Position numbers and translations under genes: made by a program. A model generated the notes under the pieces. It searched no databases, was not told where the DNA came from, and was given only the letters and a program-made list of their open reading frames with translations. Below, piece after piece: positions 1 to 6,681 of a stretch of DNA of 6,681 nucleotides; the stretch's first letter is position 1; every line of letters begins with the position of its first letter. The stretch lies in IMG/VR virus record IMGVR_UViG_2609459830_000020; one strand, given 5' to 3'. This DNA is from a virus. Taxonomy: Duplodnaviria > Heunggongvirae > Uroviricota > Caudoviricetes.

Positions 1-435
<435 letters not shown>

Positions 436-436
436 G

Positions 437-477
437 TTCACAGATAAAATACTCTCCAGGAAACCCGGGGCGGTTCA
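437..477 (+). repeat. Right terminal inverted repeat (IRR) of the IS element
   Basis: Sequence ends ...CCCGGGGCGGTTCA at 477, giving a 5'-TGAACC...-3' terminus on the opposite strand, typical of IS3-family IRs. Exact IR length cannot be fixed without the left end. Confidence 0.6.
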
Positions 478-535
478 AAGCAACTTGCAGCCTCTGTTTT
501 GGCACAATCAAACAAAGGGCGTAAGTGACAAATTA

Positions 536-569
536 CAGGGAGAGTAAAACCTCCCTGCGTTTTTTATTT
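536..569 (+). terminator. Candidate Rho-independent terminator (7-bp GC-rich stem CAGGGAG/CTCCCTG, 8-nt loop, then CGTTTTTTATTT)
   Basis: Perfect inverted repeat at 536-542 and 551-557 followed directly by a T6-A-T3 tract on the plus strand. Lies between the IS end and the 3' end of the integrase gene; may act in both directions. Confidence 0.5.
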
Positions 570-598
570 ACTACGATTGTCTGCTTGCTGGAAGGCGA

Positions 599-1873
599 TT
601 ATTGTTTCTGAGCAAACTCAAACGGCCTGACCATCCCATCCCGGTTTGCATCAAGATAATCTGCCCACCACTGTAGCATCAACCTTCGCTGCTCAAGATG
701 TTTGGCCTTATGGGTATAGGCAGCACGAACGCTGTTGCTTTCCTTGTGGCTCATTTGAAGTTCTACCGCATCTTCAGACCATAGCCCTGATTCAATCAGA
801 GCACTACATGCCAGCGTGCGGAAACCATGACCGCAGATGTCCTGCGTGGTGTCATAGCCCATCTTACGTAGCGCTTTATTGATGGTGTTTTCACTCATGG
901 GCTTGAACGAGTCATAACAGCCCGTAAAAATTAACCCCGCCTCATTACCTTCTTCATAGGTAAGCTGGCGGATCTCTTTCAGTATTTTAAGAGCCTGCCT
1001 GCAGAGGGGAACGAAGTGCTGGCGTTTCATTTTTGCGCCACGCGTGGAATATTTGACGCGCTCAATCGCTTCACGCTTTTCTGGTATTACCCATAACTTA
1101 CTGTTGAAGTCGATTTCTGACCATCGTGCATAGCGGAGTTCACTGGAACGAATGAAAATCAACAGATTGAGTTTAATCGCCAGTGTAGTTAGTCCACGAC
1201 CTTTGTAGGCATCAATACGTTCAAGCAGTAGCGGGATCTCTTCCAGCTCCAGTGCAGGGCGGTGTTCCGTCTCTGGTTTCTGGACAGCGCCTTCCATATC
1301 ATAGGCCGGATTATGACGCATAAGCTTTTGCTGGACGGCATGACGTAGGATCGCGGTGATGTATTGCTTAATCCGCATGGCAATTTCAAGGTAGCCGAGT
1401 GTTTCTGCATTTTTAATCGGAACAAGCAGATCACCCGTATCCAGATCTGAAACGTTGCTGTCGCCAATATCCGGGAATACATAGGTCTCAAGGCGCTTCC
1501 ATACCGTATCGGCGTAATCTTCTGACCATTTTGTTTTGGTGGCAAACCAGCTTCTGGCGACGACACGGAACGAACGGGTTTTATCCCGCTTTTCCTGCAG
1601 CGCTTTTTCATCAGCCAGTTTTTTAGCGTTAGGATCGACTCCCTGAGCAAGCAGCTTTTTTGCTTCATCACGTCGTTGTCTGGCATCAGCAAGAGAAACC
1701 GCAGGGTAAACACCAATGGAAAACACTTTCTGTTTACCATCGAAGCGATAGCCTAACTGCCAGTATTTTGAACCATTGGGATGCACAAGAAGGTAGAGAC
1801 CAAATCCATCAGTGAGCTTGACGGCTTTTTCCGCTGGTCTGGCATTTTTTACTTTAGTATCAGTAAGTGACAT
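599..1873 (-). CDS. int: P4-type tyrosine integrase (site-specific recombinase) of a tRNA-Asn-associated integrative element
   Basis: 424-aa product starting MSLTDTKVKNARPAEKAVKLTDGFGLYLLV, the typical N-terminus of P4/CP4-57-family integrases. Catalytic residues appear present: R in IFIRSSELRYARW, H-x-x-R in GHGFRTLA, nucleophile Y in VRAAYTH. The ATG at 1873-1871 is preceded by GGAGGG with 7-nt spacing. The longer ORF in the track (to 1939) starts in a repeat tract with no RBS. Confidence 0.85.
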   Translation of the reverse strand: MSLTDTKVKNARPAEKAVKLTDGFGLYLLVHPNGSKYWQLGYRFDGKQKVFSIGVYPAVSLADARQRRDEAKKLLAQGVDPNAKKLADEKALQEKRDKTRSFRVVARSWFATKTKWSEDYADTVWKRLETYVFPDIGDSNVSDLDTGDLLVPIKNAETLGYLEIAMRIKQYITAILRHAVQQKLMRHNPAYDMEGAVQKPETEHRPALELEEIPLLLERIDAYKGRGLTTLAIKLNLLIFIRSSELRYARWSEIDFNSKLWVIPEKREAIERVKYSTRGAKMKRQHFVPLCRQALKILKEIRQLTYEEGNEAGLIFTGCYDSFKPMSENTINKALRKMGYDTTQDICGHGFRTLACSALIESGLWSEDAVELQMSHKESNSVRAAYTHKAKHLEQRRLMLQWWADYLDANRDGMVRPFEFAQKQ

Positions 1874-1890
1874 GACGGTTCCCTCCGCGT

Positions 1891-1937
1891 GCTGGTAAAA
1901 CGCAAATCGAACCAGCTTTACCAGCATTTTTACCAGC
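1891..1937. repeat. Cluster of ACCAGC/GCTGGT motifs (GCTGGTAAAA inverted; ACCAGC; TTTACCAGC; TTTTTACCAGC) just upstream of the integrase start
   Basis: Four copies of the hexamer, three direct and one inverted, within 47 bp, located 20-65 bp upstream of the int start codon. Candidate recombinase or regulator binding sites. Confidence 0.4.
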
Positions 1938-2017
1938 AAAGTAGTGTGGGTTCGAGCGATTTTTAACGAACGAGGGTGAACCTGAAGAAGGGAGTAACCA
2001 GTTGATATAAATGCAGA

Positions 2018-2043
2018 AAGCAGACGTCAGTGAACGTCTGCTT
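2018..2043 (-). terminator. Candidate terminator hairpin downstream of tRNA-Asn (10-bp stem AAGCAGACGT/ACGTCTGCTT, 6-nt loop)
   Basis: Perfect 10-bp inverted repeat beginning 10 nt past the tRNA 3' end. On the minus-strand transcript it is followed by TCTGCATTTATAT, which is T-rich but not a clean U-tract. Confidence 0.45.
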
Positions 2044-2052
2044 CCCTTAAAT

Positions 2053-2128
2053 TGGCTCCTCTGACTGGACTCGAACCAGTGACATACGGATTAACAGTCC
2101 GCCGTTCTACCGACTGAACTACAGAGGA
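2053..2128 (-). tRNA. asnT: tRNA-Asn (anticodon GUU), 76 nt with encoded CCA
   Basis: Reverse complement reads TCCTCTGTAGTTCAGTCGGTAGAACGGCGGACTGTTAATCCGTATGTCACTGGTTCGAGTCCAGTCAGAGGAGCCA: 7-bp acceptor stem, anticodon loop CTGTTAA, T-arm GGTTCGAGTCC. The symbol asnT is inferred from adjacency to mtfA as in E. coli K-12; the several asn tRNA gene copies are identical in sequence. Confidence 0.95.
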
Positions 2129-2146
2129 ATCGTGTGAACGGGGCGC

Positions 2147-2175
2147 ATATTACTTAGCGGTACCTTGTCTGTCAA
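2147..2175 (-). promoter_or_regulatory. Sigma70 promoter for the tRNA-Asn gene: -35 TTGACA, 17-bp spacer, -10 TAATAT, GC-rich discriminator GCGCCCC
   Basis: On the minus strand: TTGACAgacaaggtaccgctaagTAATATgcgcccc, ending about 7-8 nt before the tRNA 5' end. The GC-rich discriminator is typical of stringently controlled stable-RNA promoters. Confidence 0.6.
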
Positions 2176-2228
2176 CACTAAATTTCATAAGTCATTTCAA
2201 TTGGTTAATTAATCTGCAAAGTTGTTAA

Positions 2229-3026
2229 TTAATGAACATTCGTCGCCGAAAACGAGTCTGTATCATTAGTGCGATGTAGTCTCTGCAAAGGATCTTGTTG
2301 ATAAAATTGGCAGAAACGTTGCCACAATGAAGGGAAACGAGGAGCAAAAAGTTCTGGGGCGCTAAAGAAATATTCAGAAAGTACGGCAAAACATTCAGCA
2401 GGATCACTGGCAGCATAAGCATCAATGCTCGCCGCATTCTCGCCAACCAATTCGATTTCTTCCTGAATGTTGTTCATTGCAGCATGAAGATCGTGTTCCC
2501 AGCCAGCAACCTCACGCAACGGAATAAAGGGAACTCCGCTGGCGCGATCGCCGTTACGGGTGTCCAGCTTATGAGCGACTTCATGAATAATCAGGTTAAA
2601 ACCAGAAGCATCAAAAGAATCTTGTATATCCAACCAGTTCAAAACGATAGGCCCTTGCTGCCAGCTCTGACCTGACTGAACAATACGTTGGTTATGCACC
2701 AGACCGATATCGTCTTCCCATTCATCATCGACCACAAATGGCGCAGGATAAATTAAGACTTCATGAAAACCATCCAGCCATTCCAGTCCTAACTCCAGAA
2801 CGGGTAGGCAAAATAGAAGTGCTATCCGGCAGCTTCTTAATGAATCCAGTTCAAAGCCCTGTAAAGGAACAAGCCGCTTTTGCTGTAAAAAACGTTCGGC
2901 AAGAGTGACTAATTTGCTTTGTTCCTGTTCCGTCAGACACGTTAAAAGGGGGATCGATAGTGCTTCCTGCCAGGGAAGGGCAGTTTGATGTGCTGATTCT
3001 TGTACTTTCCAGGGCCACTTAATCAT
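2229..3026 (-). CDS. mtfA: MtfA (Mlc titration factor A), zinc-dependent peptidase family
   Basis: 265-aa product starting [23 protein letters not shown] with an HEVAH zinc-binding motif (HExxH). Start chosen at the internal Met at 3026 to match the recalled length and N-terminus of E. coli MtfA; the track ORF extends 13 codons upstream. The RBS is weak. Confidence 0.8.
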
Positions 3027-3075
3027 CGTTTTGCTCGCAAACTCGTCACTTGAACAAAATTGCACGGACAGGGAC

Positions 3076-3084
3076 TGTTAAAAT
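3076..3084 (+). promoter_or_regulatory. Candidate extended -10 element (TGtTAAAAT) for the tRNA-Ser gene
   Basis: TG-n-TAAAAT lies about 35 bp upstream of the mature tRNA 5' end. No convincing -35 at proper spacing, so this is tentative. Confidence 0.25.
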
Positions 3085-3119
3085 GCCAAATTTCCTGGCA
3101 TCATGGCAACCATCTGAAC

Positions 3120-3209
3120 GGAGAGATGCCGGAGCGGCTGAACGGACCGGTCTCGAAAACCGGAGTGGGGGCAACTCCACCGGGGGTTCAAATCCCCCTC
3201 TCTCCGCCA
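3120..3209 (+). tRNA. serU: tRNA-Ser (anticodon CGA), 90 nt with long variable arm and encoded CCA
   Basis: GGAGAGATGCCGGAGCGGCTGAACGGACCGGTCTCGAAAACCGGAGTGGGGGCAACTCCACCGGGGGTTCAAATCCCCCTCTCTCCGCCA: acceptor stem GGAGAGA/TCTCTCC, anticodon stem CCGGT/ACCGG with loop CTCGAAA, class II variable arm. Confidence 0.93.
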
Positions 3210-3253
3210 AAATTCAATCACTTATACATCATTAAGTCAGTGACAAAAATCAC

Positions 3254-3300
3254 ACTTGGAATTACTTGGAATTACTTGGAATATTTTCTTGGAATATTTT
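3254..3300. repeat. Four tandem copies of CTTGGAAT (ACTTGGAATT x2, ACTTGGAATA, then CTTGGAATATTTT x2 overlapping): candidate integrase arm-type (P'-like) binding sites
   Basis: Direct repeats at 3255, 3265, 3275 and 3288, lying 45-90 bp past the tRNA 3' end and overlapping the last codons and stop of the integrase gene. Phage lambda places its P' arm sites in the same position relative to int. Confidence 0.5.
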
Positions 3301-4297
3301 CAGGTAACGGGACATCAAGTGTCGGTGAAACTTTAACCTTCCTGTCATAGATTAGCACTTGCCCCTCGGTTTTGTGACCAGAGAAAAGTTGCTTATCCCG
3401 ACTGCTTCCTTCATAGTCTGAAATTCCTTTCGCCTTCAGATCATGAAAGGTGAAGTCGGTTAAAATACCTGAAATTTTGCCTGCGCGATTTCTTGCTTCT
3501 ACCCACATTTCGTTAAAGCCTTTGTACATATATCGGTTGCCGTATTGATTACTGATTACATAGGCGGATGTTGGTAACTGTTTTGCTTTTTCGATCGCCG
3601 CCTGTAATCGTGGACTCCATGCTTTTATCTGTTTTTTTCCTGTTTTCCCTTGCTGGATAAAGATTCCGTCGTTTCCAATCTGCTCCCATTTCAGCGATAA
3701 CACATCGGAAACCCTCGCTGCACACAGATAGGCAATTTCCATTGCGATAAAAACAGGAAGAGGTGCAACGCTTAATACTGCCTGGTATTCTTTGTCGGTT
3801 ACATATCGTTCGCGGTTTTTGGCCTTGAATTTACTTACACCTGCACATGGGTTAGCCTTCACGTACCCTCGCTCATACCCCCAACTGTAAACGCGGGACA
3901 TACTGCTTTTTTCATGGTTGGCTTGCGTTTTACTCTGTTCCCCTCTCTTGTCCATGTATCGACGGATGTGTTCTGGTTTTATGGAATCTGCCGGCACCTT
4001 ACCGAATACGGCAAGCAACTTTTTTTGATGTTGCAGATAATCTTTTTGTGTTCTTGGACTGAGGTCACTGTAATAGGCGCTGGCGAGGAATTTTTCCCAC
4101 AAGCGACCGAATGTCATTGCACGATCGCGATTATTTACAGTTTCCTCATACTTTTTCCATAAAGCAGCTAAACCATCCTTGATGGCGGTTAGTGTGACAG
4201 ATTCTCTGGATGTTGGTTTCCATACATAACTATATTTATTTGGGTATACATTTGGAGGTAGTTTTTCGTGTTCAGGATTTTTCCTTCGTCTTCCCAT
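3272..4297 (-). CDS. int: Lambda-type prophage tyrosine integrase with N-terminal arm-binding domain
   Basis: 341-aa product. N-terminus MGRRRKNPEHEKLPPNVY parallels lambda Int MGRRRSHERRDLPPNLY. Catalytic motifs: R in CAARVSDV, K in QQGKTGKK, H285-D-L-K288 (Lys where box II Arg is expected), G-H308-K, nucleophile Y317 in LIYDR. The start codon overlaps the xis stop as TAATG. Confidence 0.85.
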   Translation of the reverse strand: MGRRRKNPEHEKLPPNVYPNKYSYVWKPTSRESVTLTAIKDGLAALWKKYEETVNNRDRAMTFGRLWEKFLASAYYSDLSPRTQKDYLQHQKKLLAVFGKVPADSIKPEHIRRYMDKRGEQSKTQANHEKSSMSRVYSWGYERGYVKANPCAGVSKFKAKNRERYVTDKEYQAVLSVAPLPVFIAMEIAYLCAARVSDVLSLKWEQIGNDGIFIQQGKTGKKQIKAWSPRLQAAIEKAKQLPTSAYVISNQYGNRYMYKGFNEMWVEARNRAGKISGILTDFTFHDLKAKGISDYEGSSRDKQLFSGHKTEGQVLIYDRKVKVSPTLDVPLPENIPRKYSK

Positions 4298-4500
4298 TAG
4301 ATTGCACCAAAATTCGGCTCTACCTCGCGTGGTGGTAAAGTTTTATTGCAGGTAAATAGATCCCGGCTGACAATCGGTTTGCCACTACGATTGGTATAGA
4401 ACGGAAGCCCGTTTTCCGTTAACCATTTTCGCTGGTGGCTTGCATATTTGCAGCCCGTTAATATTAGCAATTCATCTTCGGTTAAAAATAAGTTGCTCAT
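4297..4500 (-). CDS. xis: Excisionase-like protein (small recombination directionality factor)
   Basis: 67-aa ORF directly upstream of int, overlapping it by 1 nt (TAATG) as is typical of xis-int pairs. The product MSNLFLTEDELLILTGCKYASHQRKWLTENGLPFY resembles small excisionase-like proteins of lambdoid prophages. The RBS is weak. Confidence 0.6.
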   Translation of the reverse strand: MSNLFLTEDELLILTGCKYASHQRKWLTENGLPFYTNRSGKPIVSRDLFTCNKTLPPREVEPNFGAI

Positions 4501-4558: not shown

Positions 4559-6679
4559 TTAAAAATCAGCCTGACTCGGGATCAGTTTTTGCCAGATAAC
4601 TGAAACGTATTTTGCCTGGTAACGGGCGTCATCAAGTGCATTATGGCGCTCACCTTCGAATGGAATAGCCGTTCTGGCATCGAAGTCTATGGCTTTCCCC
4701 AGCTCAACGATTGTGCGTACATCGCGATCGTTGTAGTAACGCCACGGGCAGGGGATCCCCTGCCGTTCGTATGAACGGCGCAAAATCGTGTTGTCGAAGT
4801 TGGCTCCATTTCCCCAGACCTGAACAAAAAATTCACCGGAGTTTTCGTCGATAAATTCCCGCAATTGTAACAGTGCATCATCTAACTGGATTTCATCGGT
4901 CATAATGGCAGATTGCGCTTCGCGTGATTGCTTAAGCCACCATTTAATGGTGTCCCGATCAATGACTCCGCCAGCAGTTTCCAGATCGATAGTCTTACTA
5001 AATTCCGGTCCCATATCTCCGGTTTGCGGATCGAAAAATATTGCACCTATTGAGATGATCGGGGCATCAGGATTTTTTCCCATGGTTTCAAGGTCGATCA
5101 TTAGATGGTCACACGTCCTGCTGGTGGATGTGATTTCTTGATGACCGTTCACCTTAATTGAGTGATCTGCCGTCTCGCCAGTTTCATTATCGCTGGCATG
5201 ATGCTGATTGCCGCCAGTGTTCTCCTTGTGTGGATGTTCAGCGCCTTCCATTTTCTCCGGATCATCTTCCTGAACTTCAACCTGATACTCTTCATCGAAT
5301 GTTTCCTGGTATGTTGCGTCGCCCATCACCGCGCCACAATCAGGGCAGTTGCCGCCGCCGGTCTGACCGCAGGCGGTGCAGACTTTTTCCACTTCCTGTT
5401 GCGCCACTGGTTCAGGCTGTTTCGTTTCTGGCTCGTTTTGTAACGCATTTGGGCTGTTTTGTTCCGCTTTTTGGTAGTTCCGTTCCGATTCATGCTGGTT
5501 CTGGTTTACAGAATCGCGGGTCTGGATCCCCTTAACCCATTTCGGATCATTCGGGTCGCTAATCCCTGCAACAAATTCTCCGCGAGAGGCAGCAAGCAAC
5601 TTATCGGCGTCAGGCTGGCTGATATTGGCTGCCTGCATAATTTTGTTTACTTCGTCAGCGGTAACTTTTACCGGCTCTGGTTGTGCGGTCGTGTCAGATG
5701 CACCAGTATTTTGTTGTGAACCTGAGTATGTACTGTTTTTGCGGGCGAAATATTCTTCTTTCGTGATTTCAGTAGCCCCGGCAGCCAGTGCCTTATCCAG
5801 ACCAGAAAGTTTGTTTGCGCGACCGTATTTTTCGCCATCCTTGTCGGTGAAGAGGAAGTAGAACGGCCCCTCACGCTCTACAGATGGTTCGACTTCCACT
5901 TTGCATTCGGTTTTTTCGTTGTCCGGAATTGCCGTTTCCACTGCATCAGTTTCTGGTACTGACGACGAGAGAGTATCAGTTGCGCTCTGATTTGTTCCTT
6001 CATCTTCAAACACGCCCTTTGTAGTCAGGTATTCAGTAATGTATTTGTTCAGTGCCACAGGGTCTTTGTGAATGTCGATCGGACGTTCACGGACAAGGCC
6101 AAAAATAGTCTGGCGGTCGTAGCGAAGGGCATCAGGCTGTTTGCGCATTGATGTCGAGATACGCTTCCAGTCTTCGCGGTCGTTGTCGATAACTTCATTT
6201 TTTGCCCAGCGATGGATGCTGCCGTCAATGTTTCCGGCATCCACATCACCAGGCCAGAGAGCGTAGGCCAGTTCGTCATCCAGTGTTTTCCATGTCTGCT
6301 TGTATTCGCGATGAATGGCAGCAATGACCAGGCTGATTTTTCCTGTTGAATTTTCAGTGTGCTGTTGATTGACTCTGGCGCGGGCGAGATCAACAACAGA
6401 CGTGTATTTTCCGGTTTCCTTGCGTTCACCTTCGCGACGTTTTTTCCAGATGCGCATCTCTGCCTGAATTTCGGGCCATTTGGCACCAGGCTTACATTTA
6501 TGCTTAACCCACCCGATGGCATGCAGCTTAAGCTCCGGATACATGGCGTTAACTTCTGGCATTTTCATCAACGCTTCAACGATATGTCCGTTGAATGTTG
6601 CCATGTCTTCCTGCAACAATTCCTGTGCGCTAATAACCATATCAACGGTGATGTTTTCACATGTGTCGAACTTAACCAT
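4559..6679 (-). CDS. Large prophage early-region nuclease: unknown N-terminal domain, acidic low-complexity linker with a Cys4 ribbon, C-terminal DEDDh (DnaQ-like) 3'-5' exonuclease domain
   Basis: 706-aa ORF. The C-terminal about 180 aa carry Exo I (MIDLETMG), Exo II ([11 protein letters not shown]) and Exo III ([13 protein letters not shown]) motifs. The central region has [17 protein letters not shown] (CxxC-x7-CxxC). The ATG at 6679-6677 is at the window edge, so the true start may lie upstream outside the window. Confidence 0.6.
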
Positions 6680-6681
6680 GA

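Follow-up and report, generated by a model that had tools for sequence, protein, structure and literature searches.

Probable independent insertions of a lambdoid prophage and a P4-type-integrase island at the two tRNA genes flanking mtfA in an Escherichia coli locus

The stretch of DNA considered here, 6,681 nucleotides (nt) of the virus record IMGVR_UViG_2609459830_000020 (hereafter the window), holds the Escherichia coli tRNA genes asnT and serU, with mtfA between them, and an integrase module on the outer side of each tRNA gene. ARAGORN and Rfam agree on both tRNAs, tRNA-Asn(GTT) and tRNA-Ser(CGA), and the Rfam scan of the window returned nothing besides these two. The tRNA genes diverge, that is, their 3' ends face opposite ways, outward from mtfA, which is the sole gene between them. 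An initial annotation of this DNA had placed a P4-type integrase 3' of tRNA-Asn and a lambda-type integrase-excisionase (int-xis) module 3' of tRNA-Ser, with mtfA as the only core gene in between, and the tRNA calls, the domain searches (including the Peptidase_M90 match of mtfA), and the gene content all agree with this layout (Table 1). The same annotation described the two elements as lying in opposite orientations; this is apt for the elements, which extend outward from mtfA beside diverging tRNAs, but not for the integrase genes, both of which are on the minus strand. The exonuclease gene at the serU side, which relatives also have annotated, runs off the window end, its full length in relatives being 2,472 nt.

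In E. coli K-12 MG1655 the gene order is yodB-serU-mtfA-asnT-yeeJ and there is no integrase, as stated in the initial annotation. When the window is aligned to the reverse complement of the K-12 region to define the insertion boundaries, the two are near-identical from 2053 to 3209 (mtfA is ~99% identical) and cannot be aligned directly beyond either tRNA 3' end, with the breaks at 2053 for asnT and at 3209 for serU. Because K-12 lacks the integrases and the homology to K-12 stops exactly there, both modules are insertions bounded by the tRNA 3' ends. Together with the evidence below, this makes it very probable that the locus records two independent, site-specific insertions into the outward-facing tRNA genes flanking mtfA.

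Table 1. Features of the window, with positions counted from its first letter.
Feature	Position	Strand	Basis and remarks
IS1203/IS629-like (IS3 family) element, 3' part	1..477	+	rve, rve_3, rve_2 domains; orfB C-terminus 7-435; right terminal repeat ends at 477
Island cargo remnant: short hypothetical gene, 3' end only (in relatives, WP_000042272-like)	478..598	+	
P4-type tyrosine integrase, 424 aa	599..1873	-	Arm-DNA-bind_3, Phage_int_M, Phage_integrase
Integrase-asnT spacer, island-side arm of attL	1874..2052	.	no likeness to K-12 downstream of asnT
asnT, tRNA-Asn(GTT)	2053..2128	-	ARAGORN, Rfam; 3'-terminal 24 nt (2053-2076) = attachment repeat
mtfA (Mlc titration factor, peptidase M90)	2229..3026	-	Peptidase_M90, E=4.6e-60
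serU, tRNA-Ser(CGA), probably rebuilt at attL	3120..3209	+	ARAGORN, Rfam; 3148-3209 = part duplicated at attR
Prophage-side arm of attL	3210..3300	.	four CTTGGAAT copies, overlapping int 3' end
Lambda-family integrase, 341 aa	3272..4297	-	Pfam Phage_integrase; uninterrupted open reading frame
Excisionase (DUF4224), 67 aa	4297..4500	-	Pfam DUF4224; PHROG 1266; stop codon overlaps int start codon
Prophage early-left large exonuclease	4559..6681	-	C-terminal Rv2179c-like 3'-5' exoribonuclease domain, E=2.5e-67; PHROG 2082 exonuclease

On the asnT side, the integrase shows the P4-type architecture, an Arm-DNA-bind_3 domain (E=2.5e-28) followed by Phage_int_M (E=1.7e-24) and the tyrosine recombinase catalytic domain (Phage_integrase, E=2e-20), all of which pass the Pfam cut-offs. 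Its open reading frame (ORF) occupies 599-1939 on the minus strand; following the annotation in relatives we set the start at the ATG that gives the coordinates of Table 1, and the gene then begins 180 bp from the asnT 3' end. The R...HxxR...H...Y catalytic set can be read in the protein (IRSSELR, GHGFR, MSH...AAY) and, in an alignment judged by eye, is conserved with the integrase of the high-pathogenicity island (HPI), to which it is 49% identical in amino-acid sequence. At the nucleotide level the gene is 99.9% identical to the annotated integrase of O111:H8 strains, and the strains closest to the window are O111:H8 and O111:H-.

The far end of this type of island was read in PT109 (NZ_CP041031.1, about 1,904,000-1,956,500), since O111:H8 strain 8E gave no distal repeat: no copy of the asnT 3' repeat turned up at the distal island end of 8E, even allowing 2-3 mismatches. 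In PT109, a 21.6-kb island is headed by an integrase with 94% nucleotide identity to that of the window, genes for a type IV pilin, PilV, TraD, MobQ, RepL, and H-NS-like proteins are among the content of the island, and the island ends at a 24-nt copy of the asnT 3' end, TGGCTCCTCTGACTGGACTCGAAC (L016:44804-44827). A complete HPI with its own integrase follows TGGCTCCTCTGACTGGACTCGAAC in tandem, and serU is empty in this genome. The attachment (att) core at asnT, the last 24 nt of the tRNA, has the T-arm/acceptor position that is typical of P4-type integrases (bioRxiv 10.1101/2020.11.02.365908). For islands that integrate into tRNA genes, the literature describes anticodon-loop and T-stem/junction crossover classes as well as tandem arrays (PMC4383910; bioRxiv 10.1101/2020.11.02.365908).

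Directly 3' of asnT, in island DNA, a perfect hairpin with an 8-bp stem lies at 2020-2041 (GCAGACGT...ACGTCTGC) and is followed by TTTCTGC on the tRNA strand; standing in for the K-12 downstream sequence, it may serve as an island-supplied terminator of asnT. Another terminator-like hairpin with a T-run, recognized by eye, lies at ~538-567 in the cargo remnant.

What is left of the asnT island in the window is short. A copy of the insertion sequence (IS) IS1203 ends at 477, 121 bp beyond the stop codon of the asnT integrase, and cuts the island off; relatives annotate an 'IS3-like element IS1203 family transposase' beneath the stretch 1..477. Position 478, at which the initial annotation started, is the first base past the right end of this IS1203 copy. 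There is no IS at this point in O111:H8 8E, in which the match to the window starts only at 478 and an intact coding sequence of 252 nt (L001:19800-20051) spans the position of the cargo remnant. Other members of the group show the island in different states of reduction. That is, 8E and 95NR1 retain ~12 kb of it but lack both a distal repeat and yeeJ, 02-3334 (O111:H8) has its pilV interrupted by IS1203, and in O111:H- 11128 the island is reduced to the integrase and an IS1203, the junction being different from that of the window; indeed, the distance from IS1203 to the asnT integrase stop codon varies among strains. The serU side has also been hit, with IS1203 inside the serU integrase in 95NR1 and 02-3334, and with an int-exonuclease deletion fusion in 11128 that adjoins an IS1203 copy within the exonuclease gene. 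The locus therefore illustrates IS1203-driven island erosion in O111-type strains, and the asnT module of the window reads as an intact integrase ORF stranded in a decayed island remnant with ~120 bp of cargo. Excision of the asnT element is unlikely because its closest relatives lack a distal att site.

An intact integrase gene in such a remnant raises the question of whether it is still of use, for instance as a functional orphan recombinase that has been retained and acts in trans on other islands at asn tRNA genes or captures new ones at asnT. The 424-aa ORF has remained intact, with the near-identity across O111 strains given above, while the neighbouring cargo was repeatedly deleted by IS1203; tandem islands at asnT do exist, as in PT109; and the asn tRNAs of E. 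coli share one and the same 3' end in four copies. However, such a function would be a prediction, and the intactness may just reflect recent IS-mediated deletions within one clonal lineage. We consider a retained orphan recombinase unlikely and favor a simple remnant of an independently acquired island.

On the serU side, the module has the features of a lambdoid prophage end. A phmmer search against the Protein Data Bank (PDB) aligned the integrase over its full length with lambda Int (1Z1B chain A, E=7.9e-13, query 1-313 to Int 1-338), the N-terminal arm-binding part included, and the protein, a tyrosine recombinase, also matches its counterparts in ST64B (58% identity), mEp390, and BUCT708 from one end to the other. 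The 67-aa protein encoded next to it matches DUF4224 in Pfam (E=2.8e-16) and 'excisionase' in PHROG 1266 (E=1.7e-21), and it is 37-40% identical to the proteins at the same position in ST64B and mEp390 (both annotated as excisionase) and in BUCT708 (annotated as DUF4224). O111:H8 8E has this int-xis-exonuclease module at 98% identity, as the start of a ~50-kb lambdoid prophage with replication, lysis, head, and tail genes as well as the effector gene nleC; the prophage ends just before yodB.

Compared with the catalytic residues of lambda Int (R212, K235, H308, R311, H333, and Y342), the serU integrase retains the first Arg (AARVSD), HxL, GHK, and the Tyr (LIYDR), and the position aligned to R311 is a lysine, Lys288 (window 3434-3436, FHDLK), which is invariant in ST64B, mEp390, and BUCT708. 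A natural Lys at the second catalytic Arg position is rare but known, and the R292K variant of Cre is active yet defective in ligation (PMC2943603). The substitution is thus probably a family trait and not a defect. It is tempting to speculate that Lys288, or the variable number of arm-type repeats described below, tunes the balance between integration and excision in this serU-targeting branch of lambda Int, which, if true, could explain the frequent retention of serU prophages; we regard this as a rather improbable proposal at present. The idea that the orphan asnT integrase is kept for its usefulness is a weaker option than such tuning.

The two ends of the serU prophage can be compared in relatives, and the distal 3' fragments of the tRNA genes, which the initial annotation expected outside the window, were found there for both elements: the 24-nt asnT copy in PT109, described above, and, for serU, a 62-nt copy of the tRNA 3' part at the distal end of the prophage in 8E. 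The latter copy starts within the anticodon stem, in its 5' strand (at the counterpart of window position 3148), extends to the CCA end, has the sequence CGGTCTCGAAAACCGGAGT...CTCTCCGCCA, and adjoins yodB at the prophage far end in relatives. The variable arm of serU in the window has G at 3167 and C at 3178, a compensatory pair in place of the A and T of K-12. In 8E, the functional serU beside int has G..C, as in the window, and the attR copy has the K-12-type A..T; the attL and attR copies differ at these two variable-arm positions only. Since attL and attR differ at the variable-arm pair, the crossover is placed 5' of the pair, within the 19 bp of 3148-3166, that is, in the anticodon stem-loop. 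Consistent with this placement, the tRNA-Ser segment in the attP of ST64B, which lies downstream of int and on the strand opposite to it, has the same starting position. We infer from these comparisons that phage DNA makes up the 3' two-thirds of the working serU. The site fits the anticodon-loop class, in which the element restores the gene and the displaced fragment covers everything from the anticodon stem-loop through the tRNA 3' end; this anticodon-centred class of tRNA attachment is that of Williams 2002 and class A of Islander (PMC4383910).

Two other lines of evidence were tried for this site and set aside. The G-C variable-arm pair does not work as a marker of phage DNA, given that the empty serU of PT109 has the same pair, and a free attP could not be taken from two phage records with a 99% identical Int (ON470580.1 and ON470583.1), as these proved to be over-extended prophage predictions, and hence the attP of ST64B was used instead. 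A search of the literature collection used for ST64B together with serU found nothing.

Between serU and the end of int, the motif CTTGGAAT occurs four times, at 3255, 3265, 3275, and 3288 (expected 0.35; 0 of 200 shuffles reach four), and in 43 kb of sequence surrounding the distal prophage end in 8E it is found only twice, both copies being within ~120 bp of the attR core. These repeats are therefore probable arm-type binding sites of Int. Next to the int stop codon, at 3255-3284, the window has the 10-bp unit CTTGGAATTA three times, as opposed to twice in O111:H8 8E, 95NR1, and OkiPb01684.

To see how common each insertion is, we used a set of 5,426 complete E. coli genomes; all frequencies are counts per genome, with no correction for phylogeny. 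Of these genomes, 1,155 have the serU int-xis module (1,094 at >=80% coverage) and 79% lack it, and the integrase type of the window at asnT is found in 318 (262 at >=80% coverage) and is absent from 94%. The HPI integrase type, at >=95% identity, is more common, in about 2,330 genomes. For co-occurrence, a query spanning both junctions was used, so that both modules are required for 80% coverage. The integrase pair of the window fills both sites in 57 genomes, compared with ~53 expected under independence, and the HPI integrase together with the serU module does so in 490, compared with ~470 expected. In other words, about 1 in 10 complete E. coli genomes have both tRNAs filled in one of these ways, and the co-occurrence of the two modules is what chance would provide.

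These frequencies bear directly on the possibility that the integrase genes, or one of them, belong to the ancestral core and have been lost by K-12. The fact that both ORFs are intact in the window could be taken in this sense, but both modules are missing from most of the 5,426 genomes, other, unrelated integrases fill asnT elsewhere (the HPI integrase at only the amino-acid identity noted above), repeats of the tRNA 3' ends bound the elements in relatives, and the homology to K-12 ends exactly at the tRNA ends. Accordingly, an ancestral origin has next to no probability in our view, and the claim of the initial annotation that the modules are inserted DNA and not core stands.

Another alternative is that the modules are the two ends of one composite unit that carries asnT-mtfA-serU, or that they cooperate to mobilise or delete this segment. 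Their distance of only 1 kb, as well as the presence of IS1203 copies in both elements of O111 relatives, which could support homologous recombination, would favor such a scenario. So would the six genomes of the 5,426 that lack an mtfA match (the remaining 5,420 have one), one of which has a chimeric prophage whose serU attR end is joined to an ompW-side integrase. However, hundreds of genomes have one module without the other, which holds for each of the two, and their co-occurrence equals the product of their frequencies, the two integrases have no detectable similarity to each other, the att cores differ, no repeat common to both modules was found within the window, mtfA is near-universal and almost identical to that of K-12, and the integrases lie on the outer side of the tRNAs with the elements extending away from mtfA. 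Furthermore, no product of IS1203-IS1203 recombination between the two elements was seen in O111 strains. A composite or cooperating unit is therefore very unlikely, and the independence of the two elements, as claimed initially, is the reading that we retain.

The chimeric case deserves a description of its own. In 2406_w1_hybrid (NZ_CP170374.1, 702,000-742,000), a chimeric lambdoid prophage has the serU attR as its tail end and its int-xis end at ompW; the serU attR adjoins zinT, yodB is not annotated, and there is no mtfA match. This arrangement points to a rearrangement between prophages in which the asnT-mtfA-serU segment was lost, not to recombination between the asnT and serU elements.

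The proposal of the initial annotation that recombination between the flanking elements could mobilise or delete mtfA and the tRNAs thus finds no backing, considering that the elements have no repeat in common, use different att sites at different positions of their tRNAs, and flank a gene that nearly every genome has retained. It is further weakened by the state of the asnT element, which is IS-truncated and lacks a distal att site in the closest relatives.

Under the model that we favor, a genomic island with a P4-type integrase inserted into the 3' end of asnT, with the last 24 nt as att core, and has since decayed, with an IS1203 copy now abutting the integrase gene. At serU, the insertion was that of a lambdoid prophage whose Int is of the lambda family and whose Xis is a DUF4224 protein; the crossover lay in the anticodon stem-loop, with the phage attP supplying the 3' 62 nt of the tRNA-Ser, including the G-C variable-arm pair, that complete the functional serU; the displaced bacterial 3' fragment of serU would be the copy found ~50 kb away beside yodB in relatives. 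The two insertions are unrelated, and adjacent only through the chance spacing of 1 kb between two hotspot tRNAs.

Several observations weigh against this model or parts of it. The distal att sites lie beyond the window and are seen only in related genomes, and none of the 5,426 complete genomes has the exact window, the best full-length match being 98% identical and in three pieces. Because the empty serU of PT109 is also G..C, as mentioned above, the hybrid-tRNA part of the model draws solely on the difference between attL and attR within 8E. The arm-site role of the CTTGGAAT repeats is a predicted one. Finally, in several relatives, including O111:H8 8E, 95NR1, and OkiPb01684, the serU integrase bears the label 'frameshifted' from the Prokaryotic Genome Annotation Pipeline (PGAP). 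We considered whether int might be broken, given this label and the extra 10-bp unit, and rejected this: there is no break in the ORF, its homologues can be aligned to it from end to end, and the extra CTTGGAATTA unit falls past the int stop codon. Therefore, the 341-aa ORF is regarded as complete.

The paired occupation is real but ordinary and already known, both tRNAs being well-known insertion hotspots, and its import beyond annotation is small: textbook tRNA hotspots around a small core 'islet', asnT-mtfA-serU, amid foreign DNA. For annotation, the exact att cores (62 nt at serU and 24 nt at asnT) are of practical value, as they prevent boundary-calling errors such as those in ON470580.1 and ON470583.1. 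These two records, each titled 'Escherichia phage ... partial genome', contain serU, mtfA, asnT, and the HPI integrase, and one of them also contains ybtS; they are prophage predictions that overrun attL into the chromosome and the neighbouring island.

Among known systems, the serU element is most readily compared with other lambdoid prophages. [quoted passage not shown] O157:H7 genomes carry the serU int-xis module at about 93% identity, and according to the ST64B record the Int of that phage resembles the integrase of CP-933U, a prophage of O157:H7 that we take to be located at serU. The Salmonella phage ST64B shares with the window the related Int, a homologous DUF4224 Xis, a gene for a 3'-5' exoribonuclease upstream of xis, and an attP tRNA-Ser 3' segment that starts at the same position of the anticodon stem. 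It differs in its host, in an arm repeat of GAGAAAA type (by eye) where the window has CTTGGAAT, and in its tRNA-Ser segment, which deviates at several positions. More generally, serU is a recurrent site of lambdoid prophages in STEC O145:H28 (PMC7067040) and a reported site of Shiga toxin (Stx) phages (PMC8065619).

For the asnT element, the closest parallel is the HPI, the integrase of which is P4-like and uses a short asn-tRNA repeat. The two have in common a P4-type integrase that directly follows asnT on its 3' side and is co-directional with the tRNA, and a short direct repeat of the asn tRNA 3' end. They are distinct in that the integrases have only 49% amino-acid identity and in that relatives of the window's island carry genes for pilin/PilV, TraD, MobQ, RepL, and H-NS, not the ybt genes.

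With respect to the pair as a whole, the novelty implied by the initial annotation's description of a double integration hotspot does not hold. Both serU and asnT are documented insertion sites, and a review of E. coli islands tabulates the adjacent pathogenicity islands (PAI) PAI-serU (22 kb, TcpC) and PAI-asnT (HPI) in the uropathogenic E. coli (UPEC) strains 536 and CFT073, ~1.6 kb apart by the published coordinates (PMC7545054). In that pair (PAI VII536 and PAI IV536 in strain 536), the same two tRNAs flanking mtfA hold foreign DNA. The occupants are different, however, as serU holds the 22-kb TcpC island and asnT the yersiniabactin HPI in UPEC, whereas in the window serU is filled by a lambdoid prophage and asnT by an IS1203-truncated island of another family.

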